Of a DNA stretch of 64,000 bases, positions 2,420 through 64,000 are shown in pieces. The DNA is from an uncultured Bacteroidales bacterium. Lineage in GTDB: Bacteria > Bacteroidota > Bacteroidia > Bacteroidales > WCHB1-69. The position numbers were made by a program, and so were the translations under genes. The notes below the pieces were generated by a model. It was not told where the DNA came from and searched no databases. It saw only the letters and a program-made list of their open reading frames with translations. The stretch covers positions 2,468 to 66,467 of the forward strand of contig CAMJXE010000007.1 of assembly GCA_946409645.1 (NCBI GenBank), read 5' to 3'. Position 1 is the first letter of the stretch; the number at the start of each line of letters is the position of its first letter.

Positions 2420-5400
2420 TTACAATCTCTCAATCTTCACCCTAATCTTCACATCCTCCAGATCTATCTCCACGCCGTCGGAAACCGTGTCGGCAATGGT
2501 CAGGGAGGTGCAGAGGGTCTCGTTGCAGATGTGCTGCTCGAAGGCCTTCAACGCGGGGGTGATGACTTCGTTGTCCTCCACCATGACGGCGATCTTGTCC
2601 AGCACCTCGAAGTTGTTCTCCTTGCGGTAGGTCTGCACTAACTTCACGAACTCGCGGGCGTAACCCTCGTTCTTCAGCTCCTCGGAGACCTCGATGTCCA
2701 AAGCCACGGTCAGCGCACCGAAGTTGGCCACCACCCAGCCGGGGATGTCCTGCGCCTGGATCTCCACGTCGTCGGTGGTGATCTCCACGGGCTGACCCTC
2801 GATCTCGAACCTCATCACGCCCTCTTTCTCCAACTGCGCGATCTCCTGCTGCGAGAAGCCGGTGATTTTGGCGGCCACGAGCTTCATAATCTTGCCGTAT
2901 TTCGGTCCCAACTTCTTGAAATCAGGTTTGATACGCTTCACGAAGACGCCGTCCTCGTTGCTGACGAACACCAACTCCTTGACGTTGACCTCGTGCAGAA
3001 TCAGATCCTGCACCAACGAGATCTGCTGTTTGAAATGCTCGTCCATCACGGGAATCATGATCTTGGAGAGCGGCTGACGCACTTTCAGGTTGGTCTTCTT
3101 ACGCAAAGCCAACACCATGGAGCTAAACTGCTGCGCAAGCTGCATACGCTCCTCCAACTCCTTGTCAATCAGCTCCTCGTGTACCTCGGGATAGTCGGCC
3201 AAATGCACGGACTCGAAGGCTTCCTTGCCGGTGACACGGTTGAGGTCCTGATAGAGCTTGTCCATGAAGAACGGCGCGATGGGCGAGGCAATCTTGGCGA
3301 TAGTCTCCAAGCAGGTGTAGAGCGTCTGGTAGGCGGAAATTTTGTCTTCGCTGTATTCGCCTTTCCAGAAGCGGCGGCGACAGAGACGCACGTACCAATT
3401 GCTGAGGTAAGCGTCCGTAAAGTCCTGAATCTCACGACCCACCTTGGTCGGCTCGTAGTCGATGTAGTTCTCCTGACAGTGCTTCACCAACGTGTTCAGC
3501 TCGGAGAGAATCCAACGGTCGATTTCGGGACGTTTTGCGAACGGAATCTCGTCCTCCTTATATGTAAAACCGTCAATATTGGCATATAATGCGAAGAAAT
3601 TGTAGGTGTTGAACAGCGTGCCGAAGAACTTGCGCTGCACCTCGCCGATGCCGGCCTCGTCGAATTTGAGGTTGTCCCACGGTTGCGCATTGGTGATCAT
3701 GTACCAGCGGGTCGCGTCGGGACCGTATTTGTGGATGATCTCGAAAGGATCAACGGCATTGCCCAACCGCTTGGACATCTTGTTGCCGTTCTTATCGAGC
3801 ACCAAACCATTGGAAATCACAGACTTGAAAGCCACACTGTCGAACAGCATCGTGGCGATGGCGTGCAACGTGAAGAACCAGCCGCGCGTCTGATCCACAC
3901 CCTCCGCGATGAAGTCGGCGGGGAAGTTGGTCTTGAAGAATTCCTTGTTCTCGAACGGGTAGTGCAGCTGGCTGTACGGCATAGAGCCGGAGTCGAACCA
4001 GACATCGATGAGGTCGCTCTCGCGGTACATCTTCTGGCCCGACGGGGAAACCAGCACGATGCTATCGACGTAGGGTTTGTGCAGGTCGATGTTGTTGTCG
4101 TAGTTCTCCTGCGACATATCGTTGACCTTGAAGTTCTTATACGGATTCTCGGTCATAAAGCCGACGGCAATGGACTTGTCGATTTCGGCCATCAGCTGTT
4201 CGATGGAACCGATGCAGATCTGCTCTTTCTTGTCCTCGGTGGTCCAGATGGGCAGCGGCACGCCCCAGAAGCGGGAGCGGGAGAGGTTCCAATCGACCAG
4301 GTTTTCGAGCCAGTTGCCGAAACGGCCGGAGCCGGTGGCGGCGGGCTTCCACTTGATGGTCTTGTTCAGTTCCATCATACGCTCTTTGTACGCCGTGGTC
4401 TTGATGAACCAGGAGTCGAGCGGATAGTAGAGCACGGGTTTGTCGGTGCGCCAGCAGTGCGGGTAGTTGTGGGTGTGCTTTTCGCTCTTGAAAAGCTTGC
4501 CCTGCTCCTTCAGCATCACCACGATATCGACGTCCAAGGATTTGTCCTTCTCCGTCTTGGTCGGGTCGTAGGCGTTCTTCACGAACTGGCCGGCGTAGGG
4601 ACGATAGGCCTCCACGTCCATACAGTTTTGGACAAATTCGGGGTCGAGGTCTTCAATGCGGTAGAACTTGCCGGTGCGATCGACCATCGGCTGGCGGATG
4701 CCGTCCTTGTCGATCATCACGAGCGGCGGGATGCCGGCGGCGGCGGCCACGCGCTTGTCGTCGGCACCGAAGGTCGGAGCGATGTGCACGATACCGGTAC
4801 CGTCTTCCGTGGTCACATAGTCGCCGGGGATGATGCGGAACGCGCCCTCGCCGGGGTTCACCCACGGGATGAGCTGCTCGTAGGAGATGCCCACGAGGTC
4901 CTTGCCCTTGAATTCCTTCACGACCTCCGGGGCCTCTTTGAACATCGTGCCCACCAACGCCTTGGCCATCAGGATGTAGCAAGGCTGTTCGGTGTAAGGA
5001 TGCACGGTCTTCAGCATCACATAGTCGATGTTCGGACCCACGCACAACGCCGTGTTGCTCGGCAAAGTCCACGGGGTGGTCGTCCACGCAATGGCGTATG
5101 TGGGCATCGGGTCGTTGCCGTTAATGGACAAATTGTCGTTGCCGTTCACCAATTTGAACAGGGCCACGCAGGTCAAATCTTTCACATCGCGGTAGCAGCC
5201 GGGCAGGTTGAGCTCGTGGGAGCTGAGGCCGGTGCCGGCGGCGGGGGAATAGGGCTGGATGGAGTAGCCCTTACAGAGCAGACCTTTCTTGTAAAGCTCT
5301 GAAAGCAAATACCATACAGTTTCGATATACTTGTTGTCGAAGGTGATGTAAGGGTGTTCGAGATCGACCCAGTAGCCCATTTCGCGGGTGAGGTCGTCCC

Positions 5401-7610: not shown

Positions 7611-9668
7611 ATGCAGAAGAGACATTTATCCCTTTTCGTGGCCACCCTCGCCACCCTTTTCATCACCCTCGCCGCCTCCGCCCAGGGCGAGTGGAAGTGG
7701 GCGCATTACTGGACAGGCAATGGTGGCAACTATAGCGAAATATTTAATAATGTTACAAACACAGCATTTGATGAAGAAGGGAACATCTATGTCTATGGCA
7801 CCATGGGCGGAAACGTCAGTTTGGACGGGGAAATGCTTATGTTTTCCAGTAATTCTGACGTGATTACTACTTCGAAGCAATCTATACTATTAGCAAAATT
7901 CGATACGCTGGGAACAATGCTATGGTATAAAGTGATAAAATGTAATAGCGACTATTGGTCTATTCCAAAATGGATGGCCGTAAAAAACGACAGGATATAC
8001 ATTACTGGAATAACGGGTATGTGGGGCGATTATAACTATTGGTTGTATTATATTGACACCTTGATAACAAAAGCAGATGTGCTGAATCTGCCGGAATCGG
8101 AAAGAAAGCCACCTTATAAACGTAGCTGCTGGACATTCTTCTCCCAGTTGGATTTGGACGGAAACCGAATAGAAGATCATTTTGTGGAAACATATACGAG
8201 AGAATATTATGGCTATAGTCACACACGAATGGTAGGACCTATAAGCACAGACGAATATGCATATCCAACTCCTATGCATATAGATAATGAAGGTAACATC
8301 TACTTGTTCGCACAATTAGATTACGCAGGGAATGAGGAAGACCCCTATACTGTAGTCATAGACGGGGATTCCTCCAAAACTTATGACTTGTATTTGCCCA
8401 ATAGCAGTTGCGGTAGTACCGCCTTGCATAATATGATGTTTTACAAATTTACACCGAACTGGGAGTTGGGTTTTGCCAAACTGATGGTACAAAACACCGA
8501 AGGGATTGCCACCTCTTGGGAATTTGCACACGACAGTATCAACCCTCAATATTTTATACATCCTGAATGGTTGTCATACGATGAGGAAGACAACATGTAT
8601 GTTTCAGGTTTTGTGATGCTTGGGCTATCTTTTTATGGTGCATCCTTGCACCAGTATCCCGTTCACATTCATTTTGACAGTTTGCATTATGCAACCATAA
8701 ATGACCAAAGCGGTACTCGTAGATTAAACTTTGTTATAAAATATAATACAGATGGTGACATTCTATGGTGTAACCAAATATACACAAAAGGAAATCCTCA
8801 TACCTCTCCCTATGCTTATGCTGAATTATATGGAAATTGCTATCACAATAATTCGTTGTACATAACTGGGCGTGGAACATACAGTCTTGACGAATCAGTT
8901 GGTATTTTCTTTGACAGTACTTATTCTGTTCGATTGCAAGGTCCACAAAATATTGTAACAAATGTCGGCTATTTTGTCAGATATGATGCCACTTCGGGGA
9001 ATTACATGAATCACGGGGTTGTTCCTGTTATAGACGACAATTCATCCGCCTCACCCGGTCCTGTTCCTGCTGTCATAAACAACAGAGTTTTCGCGTTGTC
9101 CTTATATAAACAGTTTTCTTGGGATCCTGCAATTATTCAATGGAACACCGACGGTAACTTCATCAGCCATATCCCTTTTTCGACAGAACAGTCTGAATTA
9201 GGTGCCGTCAATGCCAAACAAGATGGAACTCTTTTGGTTAATATGGCCGCGTTCTCTCCTGTGACTTTCAGCAACAATGTGGTCGCCAATTGCGATAATC
9301 CCGGAAGCAGTCATGCTGTATTCGCGTTGTATCATAATCCTGAATTTACCGAACCCTTCGTCCCCGACGACTCCGTTGGCATCGAGGATTACCTTGACAG
9401 GCGCGAGCGCGACATTTACATTTCTCCCAACCCCACGAGCGGTCCGACTTCTGTGCACGGTTATATGTACGGTTACCAGAGCATAGAACTCTATGACCTC
9501 CAAGGCCGAAAACTCGCCGACCTGGTGGAGGCATGGCAACCCTCCAATGCCTCCACGATGCAGCCCATACCGGCGTTTGACCTCTCCCCGTATCCCTCCG
9601 GCACCTACCTCGTGAAGATCAACTTCGAGCGAGGGGTGAGCGTGGTGAGGAAAATAGTTAGGAGTTAG
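7611..9668 (+). CDS. T9SS type A sorting-domain protein, probable beta-propeller passenger
   Basis: Signal peptide ending ASA-Q; repeats DEEGNIYVYG, DNEGNIYLF, DEEDNMYVSG; CTD ISPNPT...LYDLQGR...SGTYLVKI...RKIV; start trimmed to ATG 7611. Confidence 0.85.
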   Translation: MQKRHLSLFVATLATLFITLAASAQGEWKWAHYWTGNGGNYSEIFNNVTNTAFDEEGNIYVYGTMGGNVSLDGEMLMFSSNSDVITTSKQSILLAKFDTLGTMLWYKVIKCNSDYWSIPKWMAVKNDRIYITGITGMWGDYNYWLYYIDTLITKADVLNLPESERKPPYKRSCWTFFSQLDLDGNRIEDHFVETYTREYYGYSHTRMVGPISTDEYAYPTPMHIDNEGNIYLFAQLDYAGNEEDPYTVVIDGDSSKTYDLYLPNSSCGSTALHNMMFYKFTPNWELGFAKLMVQNTEGIATSWEFAHDSINPQYFIHPEWLSYDEEDNMYVSGFVMLGLSFYGASLHQYPVHIHFDSLHYATINDQSGTRRLNFVIKYNTDGDILWCNQIYTKGNPHTSPYAYAELYGNCYHNNSLYITGRGTYSLDESVGIFFDSTYSVRLQGPQNIVTNVGYFVRYDATSGNYMNHGVVPVIDDNSSASPGPVPAVINNRVFALSLYKQFSWDPAIIQWNTDGNFISHIPFSTEQSELGAVNAKQDGTLLVNMAAFSPVTFSNNVVANCDNPGSSHAVFALYHNPEFTEPFVPDDSVGIEDYLDRRERDIYISPNPTSGPTSVHGYMYGYQSIELYDLQGRKLADLVEAWQPSNASTMQPIPAFDLSPYPSGTYLVKINFERGVSVVRKIVRS

Positions 9669-10305
9669 CAGTTGGGTGTCGGCGGGACGGATATTCAGGC
9701 GAAAAGTTCACCTTCGCCACGCCGGTGGTGTCCACATATTCGCCAGTGTCAAGAAATTTCGCCAATGACAACGCTATCTGAGAGAACGGGCTCTCCACGG
9801 CCTCTAATTGGCGTCCCATATAGACATATTCTTCCAATACCACGTCCGGATTAGCTTGAAAGGTGTTCTTACGATACCTCTTGGACACCATGATGCTTAG
9901 ATTGAAATCGTTAGCATCGTGCTCCAAATATTTCCCGGCGTTTGCATGATGGTTGCTGACCCTTATGGAAACCCTCATCTGGTTTTCACCTATTTCAAAA
10001 ACAGCATAACTACTGGCACTCTTCGGGTTCATGCCCAATGCTGTTTTCAAATCAAAGATAAACCCTTTCGGTTCTTTGACAAGCTTATAACTTTCGGCAA
10101 GACTATTTAATTTTTCTTTTGTAAGTTCTATTATTTTTTGTATTTTTGCAGCGTCATTTTCCTGAGAAGCTCTAGTGACTAAAGGTCTGCTTATCAGTTC
10201 AGGAGAATGACTTTTTTGTTTCTTCATATTTTGCGTTTTTAGTTTATTTGGCGGGTGTCCGTCTGCATGGATATTATCAACAAGTTCAGCCTCGTTCTTT
10301 TTCAT
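9658..10305 (-). CDS. Hypothetical protein with SSYAVF...IRVSNHH motif (copy A)
   Basis: 215-aa ORF with its own promoter (TAAATTTG on minus, 10330-10337); near-identical copy at 51166..51927. Confidence 0.75.
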   Translation of the reverse strand: MKKNEAELVDNIHADGHPPNKLKTQNMKKQKSHSPELISRPLVTRASQENDAAKIQKIIELTKEKLNSLAESYKLVKEPKGFIFDLKTALGMNPKSASSYAVFEIGENQMRVSIRVSNHHANAGKYLEHDANDFNLSIMVSKRYRKNTFQANPDVVLEEYVYMGRQLEAVESPFSQIALSLAKFLDTGEYVDTTGVAKVNFSPEYPSRRHPTANS

Positions 10306-10550
10306 TTCTAAATTTTAAGTAGTGGCTCGCAAATTTACAAAATTAAAGCAAACAAATCAAGTGCAAAATGTATTTAACTCATTAAGAATCAAAATGATAA
10401 AAGTGGCATTTTTAGTTTGAAAAGTAGTTGTTTTCGGAAAGGAAATGGCAAAGTGCAAAAAAAGCACAAAACCGTACTTGGCGATGCATCATATTTAACG
10501 CCTGAAATTTTGGAAGTTTTTCCCCCATGAGGATGCAGTTTCCGTTCACC
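9681..10550. repeat. Dispersed ~870-bp direct repeat, copy A (copy B ~51304-52170)
   Basis: 9842-10233 appears identical to 51464-51855 by eye; flanks are similar but diverged. Confidence 0.9.
10118..10217 (+). ncRNA. Candidate intragenic antisense sRNA with its promoter (copy A)
   Basis: TTTG(10118)-N19-TATTTTTG(10141), then a 13-bp stem GTCATTTTCCTGA/TCAGGAGAATGAC and T6. Confidence 0.6.
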
Positions 10551-10591
10551 CCGATCTCGCCCCCGGCACCTACATCGCGCTCGCGGAGATT

Positions 10592-11053
10592 TCACTTACG
10601 GCAAAACACCCGTCGGTTCCCGCACACCCGGTCGCCGAACCGGTTCGCCCACTTCTCGCAGTACAGCTCGTAATACGACATCCTTTTCCTCTTCCGGAGC
10701 CGTTCAAAACAGGGCAGGGTGGCCCAAAGGATGGAGGGGATGGCGATGACCGGTAAAAACAGCGGTCCCAACAGGATGGACTGCAGACAGTGCCCGTATT
10801 CGTGCACCAGCAAGTCGTAGTCCATCTTCGAAATCGCCCCTTTGTCGCTTTCGCTCAAGTCCGTGTCGTTCAGGAAGATGAACATCCCGCATCCGGCGCT
10901 GTAGGGGATTTTCCAACAAGTCACCACGCTCGATCGGAAGAGGAAATGCCGGTTCGGAAGAAACACCAGGAACAGAAGCAGACCAATGGCATTCTGGACA
11001 ATCCCCCACGTCCACTGCACCACCGCGCAAAGCAAAAATCTGACCGTGTTCAT
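10592..11053 (-). CDS. Membrane protein with HExxH motif
   Basis: Hydrophobic segments, HEYGH, downstream E.WA. Confidence 0.7.
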   Translation of the reverse strand: MNTVRFLLCAVVQWTWGIVQNAIGLLLFLVFLPNRHFLFRSSVVTCWKIPYSAGCGMFIFLNDTDLSESDKGAISKMDYDLLVHEYGHCLQSILLGPLFLPVIAIPSILWATLPCFERLRKRKRMSYYELYCEKWANRFGDRVCGNRRVFCRK

Positions 11054-16379: not shown

Positions 16380-16499
16380 GCCAATGGTCATAAAAAAACT
16401 ATCACAAAATAATTTTCAATAACCATCGTTTCATATTGAAAAAAAGAGTATTTTTGCTGACTGATTAAAAATGTATTTTTACGTTAAAAACATAGAGAT

Positions 16500-17189
16500 A
16501 TGATCGCAAAGAAAACAGACAAAGGAAATTTGGAAAACAAGCGTGGAATGTTCCTCCTTGTCGGATTTGCCGTGGTTTTAGCACTTATTTACGCTGGTTT
16601 TGAACTTTTCGCCAACGAAGACAAGGCCCCCGCATTTGAGATGAATGATGACGAATTCATCACTGTGGTCGATGATGATGTCATTGCTACCGACCAAACT
16701 CCACCGCCTCCACAAGAACAACCTCAACAACAACAAGAGGTCGTGCTGAACATCGTGGAGAACAATATTCAAGTCAATACTGATTTGGACTTTTCTGTGG
16801 AATTCGATGAGACTGAGGCAATTGTTGATATGACTGATGATGAAATTTCCGTGGTTGAGGAAACAGCCGATGACGAACCTCCTATGATGTTCACCGAAGA
16901 TATGCCCGAATTCCCTGGCGGTGACGAGGCTCTTATGGCTTTCCTGCAACGCGAAATTCAATATCCCGAAGTGGCTCGTAACAATGGTATCACTGGTACT
17001 GTTCTTATCGAGTTCGTCGTGGAGAAAGACGGCCGCGTCAGTAACGCCAAAGTGAAAGTTCCCTTGTTCCCTGAGTGCGACAAGGAAGCTGTCCGCGGTG
17101 TCATGGCCATGCCGAAATGGAAACCCGGTAAGAACATGGGTAAACCCGTCCGTTGCTTCTTCCAAGTGCCTGTCACTTTCAGACAATAA
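16500..17189 (+). CDS. tonB: Energy transducer TonB (copy 1)
   Basis: N-terminal TM, PPPP linker, MPEFPGG...YPEVA...F.VEKDG...MPKWKPG...VPVTF. Confidence 0.92.
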   Translation: MIAKKTDKGNLENKRGMFLLVGFAVVLALIYAGFELFANEDKAPAFEMNDDEFITVVDDDVIATDQTPPPPQEQPQQQQEVVLNIVENNIQVNTDLDFSVEFDETEAIVDMTDDEISVVEETADDEPPMMFTEDMPEFPGGDEALMAFLQREIQYPEVARNNGITGTVLIEFVVEKDGRVSNAKVKVPLFPECDKEAVRGVMAMPKWKPGKNMGKPVRCFFQVPVTFRQ

Positions 17190-17248
17190 AGGCAACAGGA
17201 AATAGGCAAAAGGCAATAGTAAATTGCTATTTGAAACCTGAAGCTATA

Positions 17249-17276
17249 AAGGAATCCAATTGGGTTCCTTTTTTTA
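17249..17276 (+). terminator. Intrinsic terminator after tonB1
   Basis: aaggaatccaattgggttcc followed by T7. Confidence 0.7.
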
Positions 17277-17362
17277 TGCAATATTTTTTATTAGGTCTGC
17301 GTTGTTTTAATAAAGCAAGTGAAATTGCTGAACAAGAATGTTTCATATTAAAACACACAAAA

Positions 17363-18052
17363 ATGGTTACAAAGAAAACAGACAAGGGTAATCTTGAAAA
17401 CAAACGCGGATTATTTGCTTTAGTCGGATTCGTTGTGGTATTAGGTCTTGTATATGCTGGTTTCGAACTTTTCGCCAGTGAAGATCGTACTACACCATTC
17501 GAATTGGTAGATGACGATTTCATCACCGTCTTAGACAATGATGTGCTCGCCACCGACCAAACTCCACCTCCGCCACAACCAAAGCAACAACCTCAACAAG
17601 AGGTAATTATCAAAATTGTCGATAATAACGTGCATGTGGACATGGATATCTCTTTCGATGTTGAAGTCTCACAAGACGACATCATTCCGGAGCTTGACGA
17701 CACAAAAGTAGATCTTGTGGATGAAACCTCGGATGTAGAACCTCCAGAGAAATGGACCGAAGAGATGCCCGAATTTCCAGGCGGCGACGATGCCCTCAAC
17801 GCTTTCCTTACCCGCGAAATTCAATACCCTGAGCTGGCCCGCACTACCGGCATCACAGGCACTGTGCTGATTGAGTTCGTCGTGGAAAAGGACGGCAGCG
17901 TCAGCAACGTCAGGGTCAAAGCTCCACTCTTCCCCGATTGCGACAAGGAAGCCGTTCGCGGTGTCATGGCCATGCCGAAATGGAAACCCGGCAAGAACAA
18001 CGGCCGTCCCACCCGCTGCTACTACCAAGTGCCCGTCACTTTCAGACAATAA
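17363..18052 (+). CDS. tonB: Energy transducer TonB (copy 2, tandem paralog)
   Basis: Same length (229 aa) and motifs as copy 1; start trimmed to ATG 17363. Confidence 0.92.
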   Translation: MVTKKTDKGNLENKRGLFALVGFVVVLGLVYAGFELFASEDRTTPFELVDDDFITVLDNDVLATDQTPPPPQPKQQPQQEVIIKIVDNNVHVDMDISFDVEVSQDDIIPELDDTKVDLVDETSDVEPPEKWTEEMPEFPGGDDALNAFLTREIQYPELARTTGITGTVLIEFVVEKDGSVSNVRVKAPLFPDCDKEAVRGVMAMPKWKPGKNNGRPTRCYYQVPVTFRQ

Positions 18053-48474: not shown

Positions 48475-49995
<1,521 letters not shown>

Positions 49996-50060: not shown

Positions 50061-50171
50061 TGGTGAAATAATTTTGAATATCACACCAAAGATATATAAA
50101 AATGTGTACTTTTGGTAAGAAAAACAAACCATTGTTGGAGTAAATGGAGAAAAAACTCAACCCGAAAGTTG

Positions 50172-50330
50172 CTCGACCTCCAGGGCCGCAAACTGGCCAC
50201 CCTCCTGGATTCGCCCCACGGCACGGACGTACCCGAAATAGACCTCTCGCCCTATCCCTCCGGCACATACCTCGTGAAGATCAACTTCGAGCGAGGGGTG
50301 AGCGTGGTGAGGAAGGTGGTGAAGCGATGA
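50172..50330 (+). pseudogene. Orphan 3' fragment of a T9SS CTD gene, paralogous to the end of 7611..9668
   Basis: LDLQGRKLA...DLSPYPSGTYLVKINFERGVSVVRKVVKR*; 50268-50314 identical to 9606-9652; no signal peptide or passenger. Confidence 0.8.
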
Positions 50331-50442
50331 AGGAAGAACGATGAATGGCGATGAAGAGCGATGAAATACGAGGAATGGAATTGCTGCGAATTGGAAAAAA
50401 TGTATCTTTGCGGCTGGAAATTCTAATGTTAGACAAGTAGTT

Positions 50443-51249
50443 ATGGGTATCACTTTTGATGAAAGGACACAAAAGTTCGTGTTCGATTTTGAACATGACA
50501 ACGAAAAGGACATTGTGCAACTGACCGACGAGGGCTACCAGGTGGAGGCGTTCGGCAAGTGCTTCTACTATGGCTATGAATTCTCCGAGCAGGTGGACAG
50601 CAGTGTCCGAAGTGCGTTCATCCAATATGTGAAATTCTCCGAAGATCTTCAAAAGGACTCGAATCTGACGCAATTCATCAAAAAAGCTATCGATGACTTG
50701 AGCCGGAAGATCAACCTGTACGATTATCAGATGGTGATTATGCCCGAGTCCTCCAGCAAGGTAAACCAGTACATGCTGCGCTATATCTATCGTTTCGCGC
50801 AGCCCACGCTCCACAAAATGCAACTCGTGAAGGCTCTGCCCCAGAACATTTCGTTTGATATGGACGGATACGAAAAACAGTATCTGGACGATGTGCTGGA
50901 AAACGGGCGTCCCCGTTATACGGAAAAACAAAAAGAGGAAGCGAGGGTCGCCATTAATAACATGGTCGATCTCATTCACCAGAAAGATTATTTTACGATT
51001 GCCAAAGATGTGAAGAAAAGCCGCTTACGCCCATACATCATGCATTTCCTGAAATTCGCCAACGAAGAAGACGAACGGCTTTGCGCCTCCATTCGAGACC
51101 AGAACGTGCTCATCATCGACGATGTGACCACCAGCGGTTCCACGTTGAACGAGATGCTTCGTACATTACGGATTTTGAACGAGGACAATAACATCGTTGT
51201 TTTCAGTTTGATAGGCCGCAAAGACTTGATGGCGGATGCCGCCATGTAG
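50443..51249 (+). CDS. Type I phosphoribosyltransferase-domain protein
   Basis: PRPP-binding motif VLIIDDVTTSGSTL, MPESSS loop; promoter TATCTTTG 50403-50410. Confidence 0.8.
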   Translation: MGITFDERTQKFVFDFEHDNEKDIVQLTDEGYQVEAFGKCFYYGYEFSEQVDSSVRSAFIQYVKFSEDLQKDSNLTQFIKKAIDDLSRKINLYDYQMVIMPESSSKVNQYMLRYIYRFAQPTLHKMQLVKALPQNISFDMDGYEKQYLDDVLENGRPRYTEKQKEEARVAINNMVDLIHQKDYFTIAKDVKKSRLRPYIMHFLKFANEEDERLCASIRDQNVLIIDDVTTSGSTLNEMLRTLRILNEDNNIVVFSLIGRKDLMADAAM

Positions 51250-51927
51250 TTGAACGGTATTTTTACGTCCGGAAATGAGACTTGAGACGTGAGACTTGAG
51301 ACAGGCGGGCGGAGGCTCAGGCGAAAAATTCACCTTCGCCACGCCGGTGGTGTCCACATATTCGCCCGTGTCAAGGAACCTTGCCAATGACAGCGCTATC
51401 TGAGAGAACGGGCTCTCCAAGGCCTCCAATTGGCGTCCCATATAAACGTATTCCTCCAATATTACGTCCGGATTAGCTTGAAAGGTGTTCTTACGATACC
51501 TCTTGGACACCATGATGCTTAGATTGAAATCGTTAGCATCGTGCTCCAAATATTTCCCGGCGTTTGCATGATGGTTGCTGACCCTTATGGAAACCCTCAT
51601 CTGGTTTTCACCTATTTCAAAAACAGCATAACTACTGGCACTCTTCGGGTTCATGCCCAATGCTGTTTTCAAATCAAAGATAAACCCTTTCGGTTCTTTG
51701 ACAAGCTTATAACTTTCGGCAAGACTATTTAATTTTTCTTTTGTAAGTTCTATTATTTTTTGTATTTTTGCAGCGTCATTTTCCTGAGAAGCTCTAGTGA
51801 CTAAAGGTCTGCTTATCAGTTCAGGAGAATGACTTTTTTGTTTCTTCATATTTTGTGTTTTTGGTTTGTCCGGCGAGCATCCATCTACAAGGATATTATT
51901 TACAAGTTCAGCTTCGTTCTTTTTCAT
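51166..51927 (-). CDS. Hypothetical protein with IRVSNHH motif (copy B)
   Basis: Near-identical to 9658..10305 up to VNFSPE, then an unrelated tail overlapping the PRTase 3' end; promoter TAACTTTG on minus 51953-51960. Confidence 0.75.
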   Translation of the reverse strand: MKKNEAELVNNILVDGCSPDKPKTQNMKKQKSHSPELISRPLVTRASQENDAAKIQKIIELTKEKLNSLAESYKLVKEPKGFIFDLKTALGMNPKSASSYAVFEIGENQMRVSIRVSNHHANAGKYLEHDANDFNLSIMVSKRYRKNTFQANPDVILEEYVYMGRQLEALESPFSQIALSLARFLDTGEYVDTTGVAKVNFSPEPPPACLKSHVSSLISGRKNTVQLHGGIRHQVFAAYQTENNDVIVLVQNP

Positions 51928-52170
51928 CTCTAAATTTTTAAGTTGTTGCCTGCAAAGTTACAAAACAAGAGCAAACAAATCAAGCGCAAATGATATTTAA
52001 TTCATTAAGAATCAAAATGATAAAAGTTGCATTTTTCAATTGAAAAGTTGCTATGTCTGGAAAGAAAGTTGCAAAGTGTAAAAAATGCACAAAGCATCAC
52101 TTGGCGATATCTCATATTGCCCGCCTGAAATTTTGGAAGATTTTGTTCGTTAGGGTGCAATTTCCGTTTA
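51304..52170. repeat. Dispersed ~870-bp direct repeat, copy B
   Basis: See copy A at 9681-10550. Confidence 0.9.
51740..51839 (+). ncRNA. Candidate intragenic antisense sRNA with its promoter (copy B)
   Basis: Identical to 10118-10217; TATTTTTG at 51763-51770. Confidence 0.6.
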
Positions 52171-52260
52171 CTCTAACCCTTTCCCAAGCAGATCACCATT
52201 GAGAGCGAGAAGTTCCCCATAGTTGAAAAAATTGTATCTTTGCAGAACGAATAGAAGACA

Positions 52261-52692
52261 ATGGAAAGGTTTGTCAATCTCATCAATGTGAACTGCGTTG
52301 TTTTTTGGCAGATGAGGTGGTTACCCACTAAAAGCAAGTTAAAAAAGGGAGACTATCTACGACAAGCAGAAGCCGCTTTTAACGGCGCATTTCGGCACGA
52401 AGGATATGCTGTTATGGGAATGCTATGGTTCTTACCAACGGCTGCCCTTGTTGTCAAACTTATAGGAGAAAGTTTCTGGACCATAATAACCACATTCGTC
52501 CTGTCTATTGCTTTGTCATTCCTCTTCCACTGGTATTTCCTGACGTACAAAAACAAATGGCGCAAATATTGGAATGAATATGAGCATCAGACAAAACGGC
52601 AACGTGTTGTATGGGCGATAATCACCATTGTGACATATATCCTTTTTTTCGGTTTTTGTACAATTGGGGCTTTTTTGATACATAAAGCATAA
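52261..52692 (+). CDS. Hypothetical membrane protein (about 3 TM)
   Basis: Hydrophobic segments; promoter TATCTTTG 52235-52242. Confidence 0.7.
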   Translation: MERFVNLINVNCVVFWQMRWLPTKSKLKKGDYLRQAEAAFNGAFRHEGYAVMGMLWFLPTAALVVKLIGESFWTIITTFVLSIALSFLFHWYFLTYKNKWRKYWNEYEHQTKRQRVVWAIITIVTYILFFGFCTIGAFLIHKA

Positions 52693-52872
52693 CTTGATTG
52701 GAAAAGCTCTTAATCTAAGGCGAAAATCATAAAATTCTCAAAATGTTGGCACCGATTTGTCTTTATCCAGTCGGTCGGCAGTCGGTGACGAAAAAAGTTG
52801 TATCTTTGCAGGCAATAATAATCAGAAAGAAAGGACACGAAAACTTGTCACTCAGGTAGATAGGCAAAAGAT

Positions 52873-53994
52873 ATGATGATCGAAGAACCCATACTCCCGC
52901 AACTTCCCGATTTTGAGGAATATATCCTGCAGGGCGAGCCGGACCGGCGGCAACGCGCCGAAAACTGGCAGATCGCCATCGGCCTGCAGGCGGTAGATGG
53001 TCTGCACACTTCGGAGTACCTGCAACAGACAGCACGGCAGCATATTGAAGGGGAGATTACAGCCAAAGAGGTGAGTGATCTCGTCAACAGTTATTATAAG
53101 TCGCAATCAGGCAGGCAATCGTTAGAGAAGGAACGAACAGAAGAGGCGGACAAAGTCTCTTCCCGAATCTCAGAACTACTTGCTGAAAAAACATTTGACT
53201 TTACGACTGCACAACTGATTTCCATACATCGCCGGCTGTTTACGGGTTTGTTTAAGTTTGCAGGACGCATTCGGGATTACAATATCATTAAAAACGAATG
53301 GGTTTTGAATGGAGATACCGTTTTATACTCCAGTGCTGACTTGATTCATGATTCCCTCGAGTATGATATTTCACAAGAGAAAACTTTCAAATACAGCGGG
53401 ATGACTGCCGAGGATTCTATAAAACATCTTTCCCGTTTTTGCGCTGATTTGTGGCAAATCCATCCTTTTGGCGAAGGAAACACCAGAACTACAGCGGTCT
53501 TTATGATGAAATATCTTAGAGCATTAGGATTCGATATGGTGTCGAATGAACCTTTTTCCCAACATTCCTGGTATTTCCGAAATGCTTTAGTCAGAGCCAA
53601 TTACAACAACCTTCAAAAAGGAATACATGCCACTACCGAATTTTTGGAAAAATTCTTCCGAAATTTGCTTCTCAATGAAAAGAACTTATTGAGAAACAGA
53701 GAAATGCATGTGCTTTGGTCTGACAATCTCGAGTTTCAAAGTGCAAAAGCAATCTCCCAAAGTGCAAATAATGAAGCCCCGTTGCCTCCAAAGTGCAATT
53801 TTTGCACTTTGGAAGAAGTCGCTGTCCTACAATGTATCCTTAAACAACCCAATATCACGCAAAAGGAAATGGCTGCCATTATAGGAAAATCTGAACGGAC
53901 AATCAAATCCATAACCATAAGACTTGTAGAACAAGGCATCATTTCCCGCAAAAACGGCAAACGAAACGGCTTTTGGGAAATCATCAACAACTAA
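52873..53994 (+). CDS. Fic-family protein with N-terminal VbhA-like inhibitory region and C-terminal HTH
   Basis: AIGLQAVDGL; Fic motif HPFGEGNTRT; ITQKEMAAIIGKSERTIK...GKRNGFWEI winged HTH. Confidence 0.9.
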   Translation: MMIEEPILPQLPDFEEYILQGEPDRRQRAENWQIAIGLQAVDGLHTSEYLQQTARQHIEGEITAKEVSDLVNSYYKSQSGRQSLEKERTEEADKVSSRISELLAEKTFDFTTAQLISIHRRLFTGLFKFAGRIRDYNIIKNEWVLNGDTVLYSSADLIHDSLEYDISQEKTFKYSGMTAEDSIKHLSRFCADLWQIHPFGEGNTRTTAVFMMKYLRALGFDMVSNEPFSQHSWYFRNALVRANYNNLQKGIHATTEFLEKFFRNLLLNEKNLLRNREMHVLWSDNLEFQSAKAISQSANNEAPLPPKCNFCTLEEVAVLQCILKQPNITQKEMAAIIGKSERTIKSITIRLVEQGIISRKNGKRNGFWEIINN

Positions 53995-54037: not shown

Positions 54038-55291
54038 ATGATCCTCATCAACATCGGAGACGAACTCCTCTTAGGACAAGTCATCAACACCAACGCCGCC
54101 TTCATCGGGCAGCAGATGGCCCTGGCGGGCATCGAAATGACAGAATGCGTCACCATCGGCGACGACGAGAGCGCCATTCGCAGCGCCATCGAGAACGGAT
54201 TTGCGAAAACCAACCTGATTGTGGTCACCGGCGGACTCGGACCCACCCGCGACGACATCACCAAAAAGGTCATCTGCGACTACTTCCACCGCGAACTGGT
54301 GGTGGACGAGCAGACCTTGGAGTGGGTGCGCGAGATTTTCGCCGCCCGCGGGATGGAACTCACAGAGACCAACAGCCACCAGGCCGATGTGCCCGAAGGC
54401 TGCACCGTCCTGAAAAACACCTTGGGTACCGCCCCCGGACTCTGGATAGAACAGGACGGCAAGATCCTCGTCGCCCTTCCCGGTGTGCCGTTCGAAATGG
54501 AAAAGCTTATCTGTGAAGAGGTTCTGCCGAGATTGCAGGAGATTTTCCACCACGAGCACGCCGTGCTCTACAAAGTACTGCAGTGTACTGGCGTCAGCGA
54601 GAGCAATCTCTCTGACCAGCTCACCGACTTCGAGGCGCAGTTACCGGAAAACATCAAGTTGGCCTACCTGCCGAAACCGGGCATCATCCGTCTGCGGCTG
54701 ACCGCTTCGGGTGCCAACAACGAAGAGCTGCAAACTTCTCTGAACCAGCAGTTTGAGAAACTGAAAGCCGAGGTGGGCTCGTTGGCCTTCGCCGACGAGG
54801 ACATCCCGATGGAAGCCGTCATCGGCAAGTTACTGCGCGGGAGCGGTCGTCGCGTGGCTACCGCCGAGAGCTGTACCGGCGGCTTTATCGCGCATCTGAT
54901 TACCTCTGTGCCAGGCAGTTCCGAATACTTCCAAGGGAGCGTGGTCTCCTACAGCAACCAGGTGAAGCGCGACATCCTCAACGTTCGGGAGGACAACCTC
55001 AAGAAACGCGGCGCAGTGAGCGAGCCGGTGGTCAGCGACATGGCCCTCAACGCAATGGATCTCCTGGATGTCGATTACGCCGTGGCCACCTCCGGCATCG
55101 CGGGTCCCGACGGCGGCACGGCCGAGAAGCCCGTCGGCACCGTCTGGATGGCCGTGGCTACCCCTACCCGACTGACCACCAAAGAGTTCCATTTCGGTAA
55201 GCACACTGGTCGGAAGCAGATTATCGAGCGTGCCGCCCATGCTGCCCTCAACATGCTGCGTATCGAAATCGAGAAAGACCTCCGCCGATGA
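54038..55291 (+). CDS. cinA: Competence/damage-inducible protein A (NMN deamidase domain)
   Basis: IGDELLLGQVINTN, TGGLGPT.DD.T, LPGVPFEM, AESCTGG, SGIAGPDGG..EKPVG. Confidence 0.95.
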   Translation: MILINIGDELLLGQVINTNAAFIGQQMALAGIEMTECVTIGDDESAIRSAIENGFAKTNLIVVTGGLGPTRDDITKKVICDYFHRELVVDEQTLEWVREIFAARGMELTETNSHQADVPEGCTVLKNTLGTAPGLWIEQDGKILVALPGVPFEMEKLICEEVLPRLQEIFHHEHAVLYKVLQCTGVSESNLSDQLTDFEAQLPENIKLAYLPKPGIIRLRLTASGANNEELQTSLNQQFEKLKAEVGSLAFADEDIPMEAVIGKLLRGSGRRVATAESCTGGFIAHLITSVPGSSEYFQGSVVSYSNQVKRDILNVREDNLKKRGAVSEPVVSDMALNAMDLLDVDYAVATSGIAGPDGGTAEKPVGTVWMAVATPTRLTTKEFHFGKHTGRKQIIERAAHAALNMLRIEIEKDLRR

Positions 55292-63793: not shown

Positions 63794-64000
63794 AATCCCG
63801 TTTTATAAAATGTTTATAATTTCCGCCTGCAAAATTACAAAAACAATTCGAGAAAAACAATGGCAAAATTAATATAACTAATTAAAAATCAAATATATAA
63901 AAATATCATTTTTCGATATAATAGTTGCTGTTTTCGTGATCAAAATTACAAATTGTAAAAAATGTATGAAACAAAAGGTCATTCCAATTGTCGGAGCTGT

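Follow-up and report, generated by a model that had tools for sequence, protein, structure and literature searches.

A conserved promoter and hairpin unit antisense to the gene of an uncharacterised polyvalent-protein domain in Bacteroidales: a candidate cis-antisense RNA

The gene copies and their antisense elements

The window, that is, the whole 64,000-nt stretch of DNA that was analysed, harbours two copies of a gene (A and B) on the minus strand. In both copies the 5′ coding part carries promoter-like and hairpin-forming sequences on the opposite strand. The features are the following:

9658..10305, minus strand: gene copy A, a 215-aa open reading frame with a conserved alternative start, Met27, at 10225-10227
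10338..10367, minus strand: sense promoter-like site TTTG-N18-TAATTTTG, upstream of the copy A frame (pattern match)
10118-10121, plus strand: TTTG, the −33-like element of the antisense promoter, 19 nt from the −7 box (pattern match)
10141-10148, plus strand: −7 box TATTTTTG, sigma-ABfr consensus TAnnTTTG, over the codons of Ala53-Lys54-Ile55
10153-10165 and 10199-10211, plus strand: stem arms GTCATTTTCCTGA and TCAGGAGAATGAC, with one U.G pair
10174-10180 and 10184-10191, plus strand: inner 7-bp hairpin with its loop at 10181-10183 (folding)
10212-10217, plus strand: T6, the U6 tail of the RNA (sequence)
10153..10217, plus strand: predicted antisense RNA of ~65 nt (folding, covariation and covariance model R1, with both ends deduced)
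51166..51927, minus strand: gene copy B, a 253-aa open reading frame, near-copy of A whose homology ends after ...NFSPE
51740..51770, plus strand: copy B antisense promoter, identical to that of copy A
51775..51839, plus strand: copy B predicted antisense RNA, identical to that of A and located in the identical alignment block

Direct reading of the plus strand recovered all elements that the initial annotation had described there, namely a −33/−7 promoter, a stem and a run of six Ts. The stem of 13 bp with one G-U pair was confirmed and lengthens to 14 bp via G10166.U10198 (10153-10166 / 10198-10211), and four nucleotides (CAGC) separate it from the −7 box. Promoter and RNA unit together sit within codons 31-63 of the minus-strand frame. 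The T-run stops 8 nt before the Met27 codon, in agreement with the earlier reading that the unit ends just short of this start. A sense promoter had also been proposed for gene A, and a matching, putative site is indeed found at 10338-10367 on the minus strand.

TAnnTTTG and TTTG are given as the sigma-ABfr promoter consensus in the accessible part of PMC7366714. The window has both elements of this predicted antisense promoter, TAnnTTTG near −7 and TTTG near −33. The pattern TTTG-N18-20-TANNTTTG had four matches in the window against 0.84 expected, a number reached in none of 100 shuffles. Two of the four are the antisense sites of copies A and B, and one is the sense promoter-like site. The fourth match to this Bacteroidota pattern lies at 63864-63893 on the minus strand.

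When folded, the plus-strand RNA 10153-10217 reached −24.3 kcal/mol (z = −3.94; 0/200 shuffles as good), compared to −16.8 kcal/mol (z = −2.42; 7/200 shuffles as good) for the minus-strand reading of the same stretch. As in intrinsic terminators, the stem is followed by a U-run: the 14-bp stem and U6-7 were found in all 44 distinct sequences of the alignment described below. The hairpin lacks the compact loop of 3-8 nt, its interior being 31 nt long with an inner hairpin. A simple terminator scan returned no terminator at the antisense unit, because this interior exceeds the loop limit of the scan. A search of Rfam at a permissive threshold gave a best score of 15.7 bits against family thresholds of 39-94, with all E > 3. 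Contigs from public RNA libraries cover 9576-10323 in parts; such contigs report presence only and carry no strand, ends or level.

The identity of copy B, noted earlier for part of the region, was borne out over the whole promoter-hairpin stretch. Covariance model R1 matched copy B (51771-51843) with 102.1 bits, the same score as for copy A (10149-10221). The two copies are identical over 393 nt, starting just before Met27. Upstream, in codons 1-26, they differ mostly by amino-acid changes, and downstream they have diverged as well. This identical block (~9833-10225 / ~51455-51847) with divergent flanks suggests, from sequence comparison, gene conversion between copies A and B. Homology between the copies spans about 9681-10549.

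Covariation and strand of the hairpin in the close family

We gathered 24 loci from genomes (rumen Bacteroidales MAGs) and 55 from metagenomes. The block ~10134-10222 was recognisable by blastn in 61 of 82 loci, even where the flanks were unrelated. Fifty-eight loci with an in-frame anchor gave 44 distinct sequences of 130 nt (alignment A3), in which the window row represents the identical L029 and from which L078 (contig edge) was left out. In A3, 923 of 924 pair cells hold (99.9%; one unpaired cell). Two-sided changes occurred in four pairs (U-A to C-G twice, U-A to A-U, and A-U to G-C). None of 500 shuffles reached the observed values, and slid controls paired at 33-54%.

A second alignment, A8, was made with MAFFT blind to structure and holds 20 sequences: 12 close-family variants, a second subfamily, four orphan copies and L059. 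Here 98.9% of 280 cells pair, and two-sided changes were seen in 8 of the 14 stem pairs (28 cells), with 0/500 shuffles matching and slid controls at 38-54%. As the sequences in these alignments are related, cell counts do not stand for independent events. The initial annotation had proposed covariation of the stem as a check, and the stem does covary in both A3 and A8.

The pairing also tells the strands apart. In A3, 194 cells are G.U or U.G and correspond to A.C mismatches on the sense strand, where 195 cells are thus non-standard and ~79% pair (arithmetic from the A3 pair table). Since the wobble cells would be mismatched in the mRNA, the structure belongs to the plus strand.

Nucleotide constraint was confined to the same stretch. 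Synonymous heterozygosity fell to 0.10 across codons 31-52 and to 0.07 across codons 53-57, versus 0.44-0.49 in the rest of the gene, and 14 of 25 degenerate codons were invariant in codons 31-57 versus 1 of 105 elsewhere. The amino-acid changes S34L/F, N50D, P35L and E49V follow base pairing. Among the 44 distinct sequences, the −7 box is exact in 43 and lies at a fixed distance of 4 nt from the stem; the stem is followed by T6-7 in every one, and CTGCTTATCAGT, in the hairpin interior, is invariant. TTTG was found 17-21 nt upstream of the box in 28/44 sequences and TTG in 36/44, so that the −33 element can be called moderately conserved at the sequence level.

The proposal that a small and complete transcription unit runs antisense to codons ~30-52 is therefore strongly supported by comparison, through covariation, wobbles, synonymous suppression, the −7 box, the U-run, and the paralogs and orphan copies described below. 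At the level of sequence, this comparison establishes the structure, its strand, the promoter box and the U-run; from these we infer that the unit is transcribed.

For a MAFFT alignment that combined near copies with very distant ones, RNAalifold returned no pairs because the 3′ arms were misaligned. That alignment was superseded by a script anchored on the −7 box and by A8. The cmsearch alignments A6 and A7 were not counted, as both are fitted to the model and A7 contains chance matches.

Distant paralogs, long reading frames and orphan units

Model R1, built from the close family, also found the antisense unit in L003, the third paralog of the window's own genome (an intact 216-aa reading frame of 41% identity; E = 8e-11), and in L059 (E = 5e-11). 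Weaker matches were obtained in L067, L074, L072, L065 and L080. The layout of box, 4 nt, hairpin and U-run recurs in paralogs of 36-42% identity.

With the −7-box-anchored script we compared 14 distinct distant loci, with duplicates collapsed and L047, L081 and L082 (fragments or off contig) left out. At these loci an ungapped stem of 12 nt begins 5 nt past the box. It pairs at 12/12 positions in five loci, at 11/12 in three, at 10/12 in three and at nine or fewer in three. Across the 14 loci we counted 21 G.U against one A.C, the antisense fold was more stable than the sense fold in all 14, and a U-rich tail is present in most. TAnnTTTG was found at the same place in 12/12 distinct distant loci, over A-K/N-[ILV] codons, and in L003 too; keeping the box over these codons requires particular synonymous codons.

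In L060, L066, L067 and L072, the unit is located inside open frames of at least 1863-2200 aa of the polyvalent type, and L091, on a viral contig from IMG/VR, has it in an open frame of 2168 aa or more. Within these long frames its distance from the frame start ranges from hundreds to at least 1000 codons. L060, L067, L071, L072 and L091 have the loop motif AGTGGTTAAGTCC in common, read as D-L-T-T on the sense strand, and the solitary family has AGTGACTAAAGGTC or AGTGGCCTCGGGCC instead.

At places where only the RNA unit is found, the DNA encodes a remnant peptide of 17-46 aa and no domain, and these orphan copies keep the structure. One of them, L077, is an isolated intergenic unit. In two genomes an intact L003-subfamily gene is preceded, at ~370 nt, by a second, orphan unit (L090 on G144:C72, units 764-839 and 1133-1208; G130:C22, units 4333-4408 and 4702-4777).

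The protein and its domain

The SSY...IRVSNHH motif pointed out in the initial annotation is present and forms the conserved core of the domain. In the AlphaFold prediction (mean pLDDT 80.1, pTM 0.70), residues 1-44 are disordered and residues 45-205 folded, and the product of 189-215 aa is predicted to hold a soluble alpha/beta domain of ~160 residues. Among 219 candidates we found 69 close relatives. The few that have source names are called 'hypothetical protein', no Pfam domain was found in the 69, and many start at MKQKSH (corresponding to Met27/28). The protein alignment is most conserved at KSHSPELISRPLVT.ASQEND, which is exactly the hairpin region, though this part is predicted to be disordered. 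Distant proteins, too, show loose conservation of the peptide under the hairpin (K-K-S-x-P..EL...SQ..D.AKI).

When a profile was searched against 1.84 billion representative proteins, 643 matched at E ≤ 1e-3. Many of these have 1000-7236 aa and carry the domain in mid-protein, and solo forms occur too. The long proteins P0071, P0114 and P0121 carry ART-PolyVal, PBECR1/5, LPD3, LPD23 or Kinase-PolyVal, and no Pfam family was returned for the matched stretch in these three. The domain is also present on one viral contig. Like the domains of the LPD class, it thus recurs in large multi-domain proteins beside known polyvalent domains; it matched no named LPD model and no Pfam family at E ≤ 1. In 49 diverse copies, a hand-chosen subset of the best 150 matches, H119 and E159 are invariant, and S98, Y100, R115, S117, N118, Y162 and D192 are kept in 44-48. 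Because polar residues are so strongly conserved in these copies, the domain is probably an enzyme. Taken together, the sequence comparisons suggest that the protein is an unnamed, probably enzymatic domain shared with the polyvalent proteins of phages and conjugative elements. This relation to giant polyvalent proteins goes beyond the initial annotation, as does the presence of the antisense unit beside domain copies in long open frames.

No family for the protein was found in PHROG, NCBIfam or PADLOC, and no significant fold match in the PDB. Foldseek reached at best E = 0.17 in the PDB, VIA-align wide at best Z = 5.2, and BFVD at best E = 9e-3, to Rpb5. In the ESM Atlas, only unnamed clusters were hit, at 0.82-0.83. 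Many of the weak fold rows are restriction-endonuclease-like (FokI, PvuII, MspJI, EndoMS, Mus81/XPF, the Rpb5 N-domain and UL24), a resemblance between a modelled structure and weak matches that we take as a lead only. The suggestion that the protein is RNase-like, of the BECR type, found no backing in these searches: no Pfam (PBECR included), PHROG, NCBIfam or PADLOC family matched, the fold search stayed at Z = 5.2 and E = 0.17, and no BECR/RelE-type chain was among its rows, which were weak throughout.

Distribution and decay

The window's own genome holds three RNA matches and three protein matches. In a family sample of 151 genomes, the protein was found in 32, the RNA in 32 and both in 28, leaving four genomes with protein only (fragments or weak copies) and four with RNA only. 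In the 28 genomes with both, the protein match has the RNA in its 5′ part, on the opposite strand. Within the own genus the protein was found in 26/53 genomes and the RNA in 25/53, with one to four copies of the gene. In an evenly drawn sample of the phylum, one of 401 genomes matched, the window's own, which indicates that the domain is rare outside the family among the genomes searched.

Of 59 anchor loci, 29 are full length, five are nearly so and four run off the contig. The other 21 have lost part of the gene, by truncation or internal deletion, and retain an intact RNA unit. Several of these 21 share one deletion, so that they represent about a dozen independent events. The common internal deletion was seen in L017, L018, L019, L022, L054, L055 and L058 (window-equivalent 9674-10084) and removes the whole predicted catalytic core, with the promoter, the RNA unit and the 3′ flank staying in place. 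Contigs from the RNA libraries of runs X8 and X10 also show its junction, as a loose end at position 10085. Short remnants that consist of the C-terminal part and give no RNA match occur as well (G141:C13, G144:C18, G111:C48 and G035:C60), and retention of the RNA is thus a bias and not a rule.

Each of the 12 full-length loci examined has different neighbours, for the most part housekeeping genes, among them those for ValRS, a release factor, PFOR, DAP dehydrogenase, T9SS cargo proteins and methyltransferases. No integrase or relaxase was found beside the solitary copies examined.

Comparison with known systems

[quoted passage not shown] The unit described here resembles them as a predicted small, highly structured antisense RNA with its own promoter in the 5′ part of the target and a terminator hairpin, and complementarity to the mRNA, promoter and terminator are all present as conserved sequence features. 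The loci are likewise solitary, multi-copy and patchy, and RNA-only remnants occur. Type I toxins are usually small (< 60 aa) and hydrophobic or membrane-bound, whereas the product here has 189-215 aa and a soluble alpha/beta domain; SymE and RalR are exceptions to that rule. Unlike in type I systems, the RNA unit is also found within polyvalent-type reading frames of ~1900 to > 2100 aa.

IS10 RNA-OUT, FinP of the F plasmid and CopA of R1 are antisense control RNAs of mobile elements. The predicted RNA is similar to these in being a stem-loop within a size range of ~65-80 nt, antisense to the 5′ end of a mobile-element mRNA, and in repressing its target in resident cells, as is proposed here. 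In contrast to them, its target is not a transposase, transfer activator or replication protein, and the RNA is encoded inside the coding sequence, downstream of the start codon. ToxIN-type (type III) systems have a structured RNA, a tandem repeat array that precedes the toxin gene on its sense strand and is processed by the toxin. The linkage of a structured RNA to a protein of ~170-190 aa is shared with them, but the RNA here is antisense and gene-internal and has no repeat array. Type III-like protein binding had also been considered in the initial annotation; the layout of type III systems was not recovered, as Tandem Repeats Finder returned 0 rows for 9300-10800.

In the accessible literature on type I TA systems and cis-antisense RNAs of Bacteroides, we found no type I family of this kind; 'putative type-I TA systems' are mentioned for B. 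thetaiotaomicron in the accessible part of PMC7366714. In the same part, a sigma-ABfr promoter is assigned to 52% of the candidate cis-antisense RNAs. DonS and other Bacteroides cis-antisense RNAs described there share with our unit the phylum, the promoter type and a similar size range. DonS RNAs, unlike the present unit, are encoded divergently to susC genes of PULs (PMC7366714, same part), and we found no sequence or Rfam relation between the two.

The LPD domains of polyvalent proteins were described by Iyer et al. 2017 (PMC5512222). As in the 'potentially enzymatic' LPDs of the accessible part of that account, polar residues are strongly conserved here, and the domain occurs both inside proteins of 1000-7236 aa and solo. 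It matches none of the Pfam LPD models. No antisense RNA is described for LPDs in the accessible part of PMC5512222.

Proposed mechanism and alternative explanations

With moderate confidence, we favour the reading that the unit is a cis-antisense small RNA gene inside the 5′ coding part of a solitary gene and acts as its repressor, in a manner similar to type I TA systems or to RNA-OUT and FinP. RNA polymerase would start at ~10153 and terminate at ~10213-10217, giving an RNA of ~65 nt. This predicted RNA and nt +11 to +75 of the Met27 frame, beside the initiation region, show perfect complementarity. It would pair with the mRNA, probably by a loop-loop contact with the mirror hairpin first, and pairing would block initiation at Met27 and/or create a double-stranded RNase target. 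The protein would in this way stay scarce in cells with a resident element. In the 215-aa forms the upstream frame is open, so the target may lie ~90 nt inside the coding sequence. In the long open frames the distance from the start means that a block of initiation is not a general mechanism; there, the unit would act only by cleavage or decay of the mRNA, or by interference.

Beyond transcription, repression of the overlapping mRNA by the antisense RNA is a further step, suggested by sequence, and that the protein harms the cell is suggested more weakly. If both hold, the module would be a selfish cassette with the RNA in an antitoxin-like, type I-like role. Signs of a selfish module are that the gene is solitary, patchy, multi-copy and often broken while its RNA part is intact. 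In a wider version, which we put forward as possible but doubtful, RNA and domain form one portable, self-silencing module. The repressor gene would be written into the DNA for the N-terminal linker of the domain, and resident-state repression would therefore travel with the domain, whether as a solitary chromosomal cassette or in the middle of a gene for a polyvalent protein of 2000-7000 aa from a phage or conjugative element. The domain would be a toxic enzyme, and orphan RNAs left behind once the domain is lost would confer immunity in trans against incoming copies.

Several other explanations have to be weighed. The least likely one dispenses with a separate element and sees a peptide motif together with the recent spread of near-identical DNA. 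Loose conservation of the peptide in distant proteins and the many close copies with > 90% identity agree with it. It is very hard to reconcile with synonymous sites that are frozen in the hairpin stretch only, with replacements that were accepted where pairing is kept, with sequence-unrelated stems that pair at 11-12 of 12 positions in 8 of the 14 distant loci at a fixed box offset, and with a codon choice that preserves TAnnTTTG in 12/12 distinct distant loci. The covariation, the distant stems and the synonymous data already contradict this explanation at the sequence level, and we give it almost no weight. A hairpin might also work in the single-stranded DNA of a mobile element, in recombination, priming or as a single-strand promoter, and not as RNA. 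G.T wobbles are tolerated in DNA hairpins, the domain belongs to proteins of phages and conjugative elements, and the cassette occurs at many different chromosomal sites. We nevertheless judge this improbable: the −7 box at a fixed 4 nt and the T-run suit a transcription unit and are needless for a DNA site, the hairpin lies in the interior of the cassette and not at its borders (homology of A and B, ~9681-10549), and the solitary copies examined have no integrase or relaxase beside them.

Two further explanations accept the RNA or its repressive action. About as improbable as a DNA site is, in our estimate, an RNA that binds the protein, as a type III-like antitoxin or as a cofactor of the enzyme, and does not pair with the mRNA. 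The hairpin interior is conserved beyond the needs of pairing (CTGCTTATCAGT in the 44 sequences, AGTGGTTAAGTCC common to the long-frame copies), and orphan copies retain the structure, as such a role would have it; loop conservation is, however, expected as well where one stretch has to serve both as RNA and as codons, tandem repeats of the type III kind are lacking, and perfect complementarity to its own mRNA is enough for antisense action. Somewhat better placed, and still unlikely, is antisense repression of a protein that is not a toxin, i.e. resident-state silencing of an early invasion or anti-defence factor (establishment control, copy-number sensing). The presence of the unit inside long polyvalent genes fits this, as polyvalent proteins are read as early-phase invasion effectors in the accessible part of PMC5512222. 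The solitary copies among housekeeping genes, with no mobile element around them, are better explained by a self-maintaining module, and the frequent loss of the catalytic core with retention of the RNA suggests that the protein is costly. We thus retain a cis-antisense repressor in a type I-like arrangement as the preferred reading.

On that reading, the unit would represent a new RNA family and a new form of antisense, type I-like control on an uncharacterised polyvalent-protein domain, as judged from sequence. It would add to the known RNAs a structured family absent from Rfam, with unusually clear covariation inside a coding region, where one stretch of DNA would carry three codes: a peptide, a promoter with terminator, and an RNA helix. 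It would also give a first functional handle on the domain, which is probably enzymatic. The findings suggest that internal antisense switches are possible in the giant genes of phages and conjugative elements. RNA-controlled modules of this type are barely described in Bacteroidota.

Surroundings of the copies in the window

Copies A and B were also considered as the flanks of a mobile element. We rejected this, as the intervening genes belong to the core (GH92, UvrD, Mur ligase, AnmK and GMP synthase).

Copy B lies in a small island (50112-53994) between the genes for GMP synthase (48475-49995) and cinA (54038-55291). Compared to copy A, it has an insert of ~1 kb (50315-51306) exactly where homology stops after ...NFSPE. 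This insert holds a PRTase-like gene (50443-51249; weak ShosT match, E = 7e-8), which is convergent with gene B; the tail of gene B enters its 3′ end, with an overlap of 84 nt (51166-51249). The island further contains a T9SS C-terminal sorting domain remnant (50230-50314; 91% identity to 9568-9652), a gene for a small membrane protein (52261-52692) and one for a Fic-HTH protein (52873-53994) that matches PADLOC PDC-S72 (E = 1e-129) and SoFic. From its gene content it looks like a defence or toxin island.

Elsewhere in the window, at 16468-18016, two direct repeat families are spaced 863 nt apart with 73-77% identity, which suggests a tandem duplication of a reading frame of ~230-300 aa.
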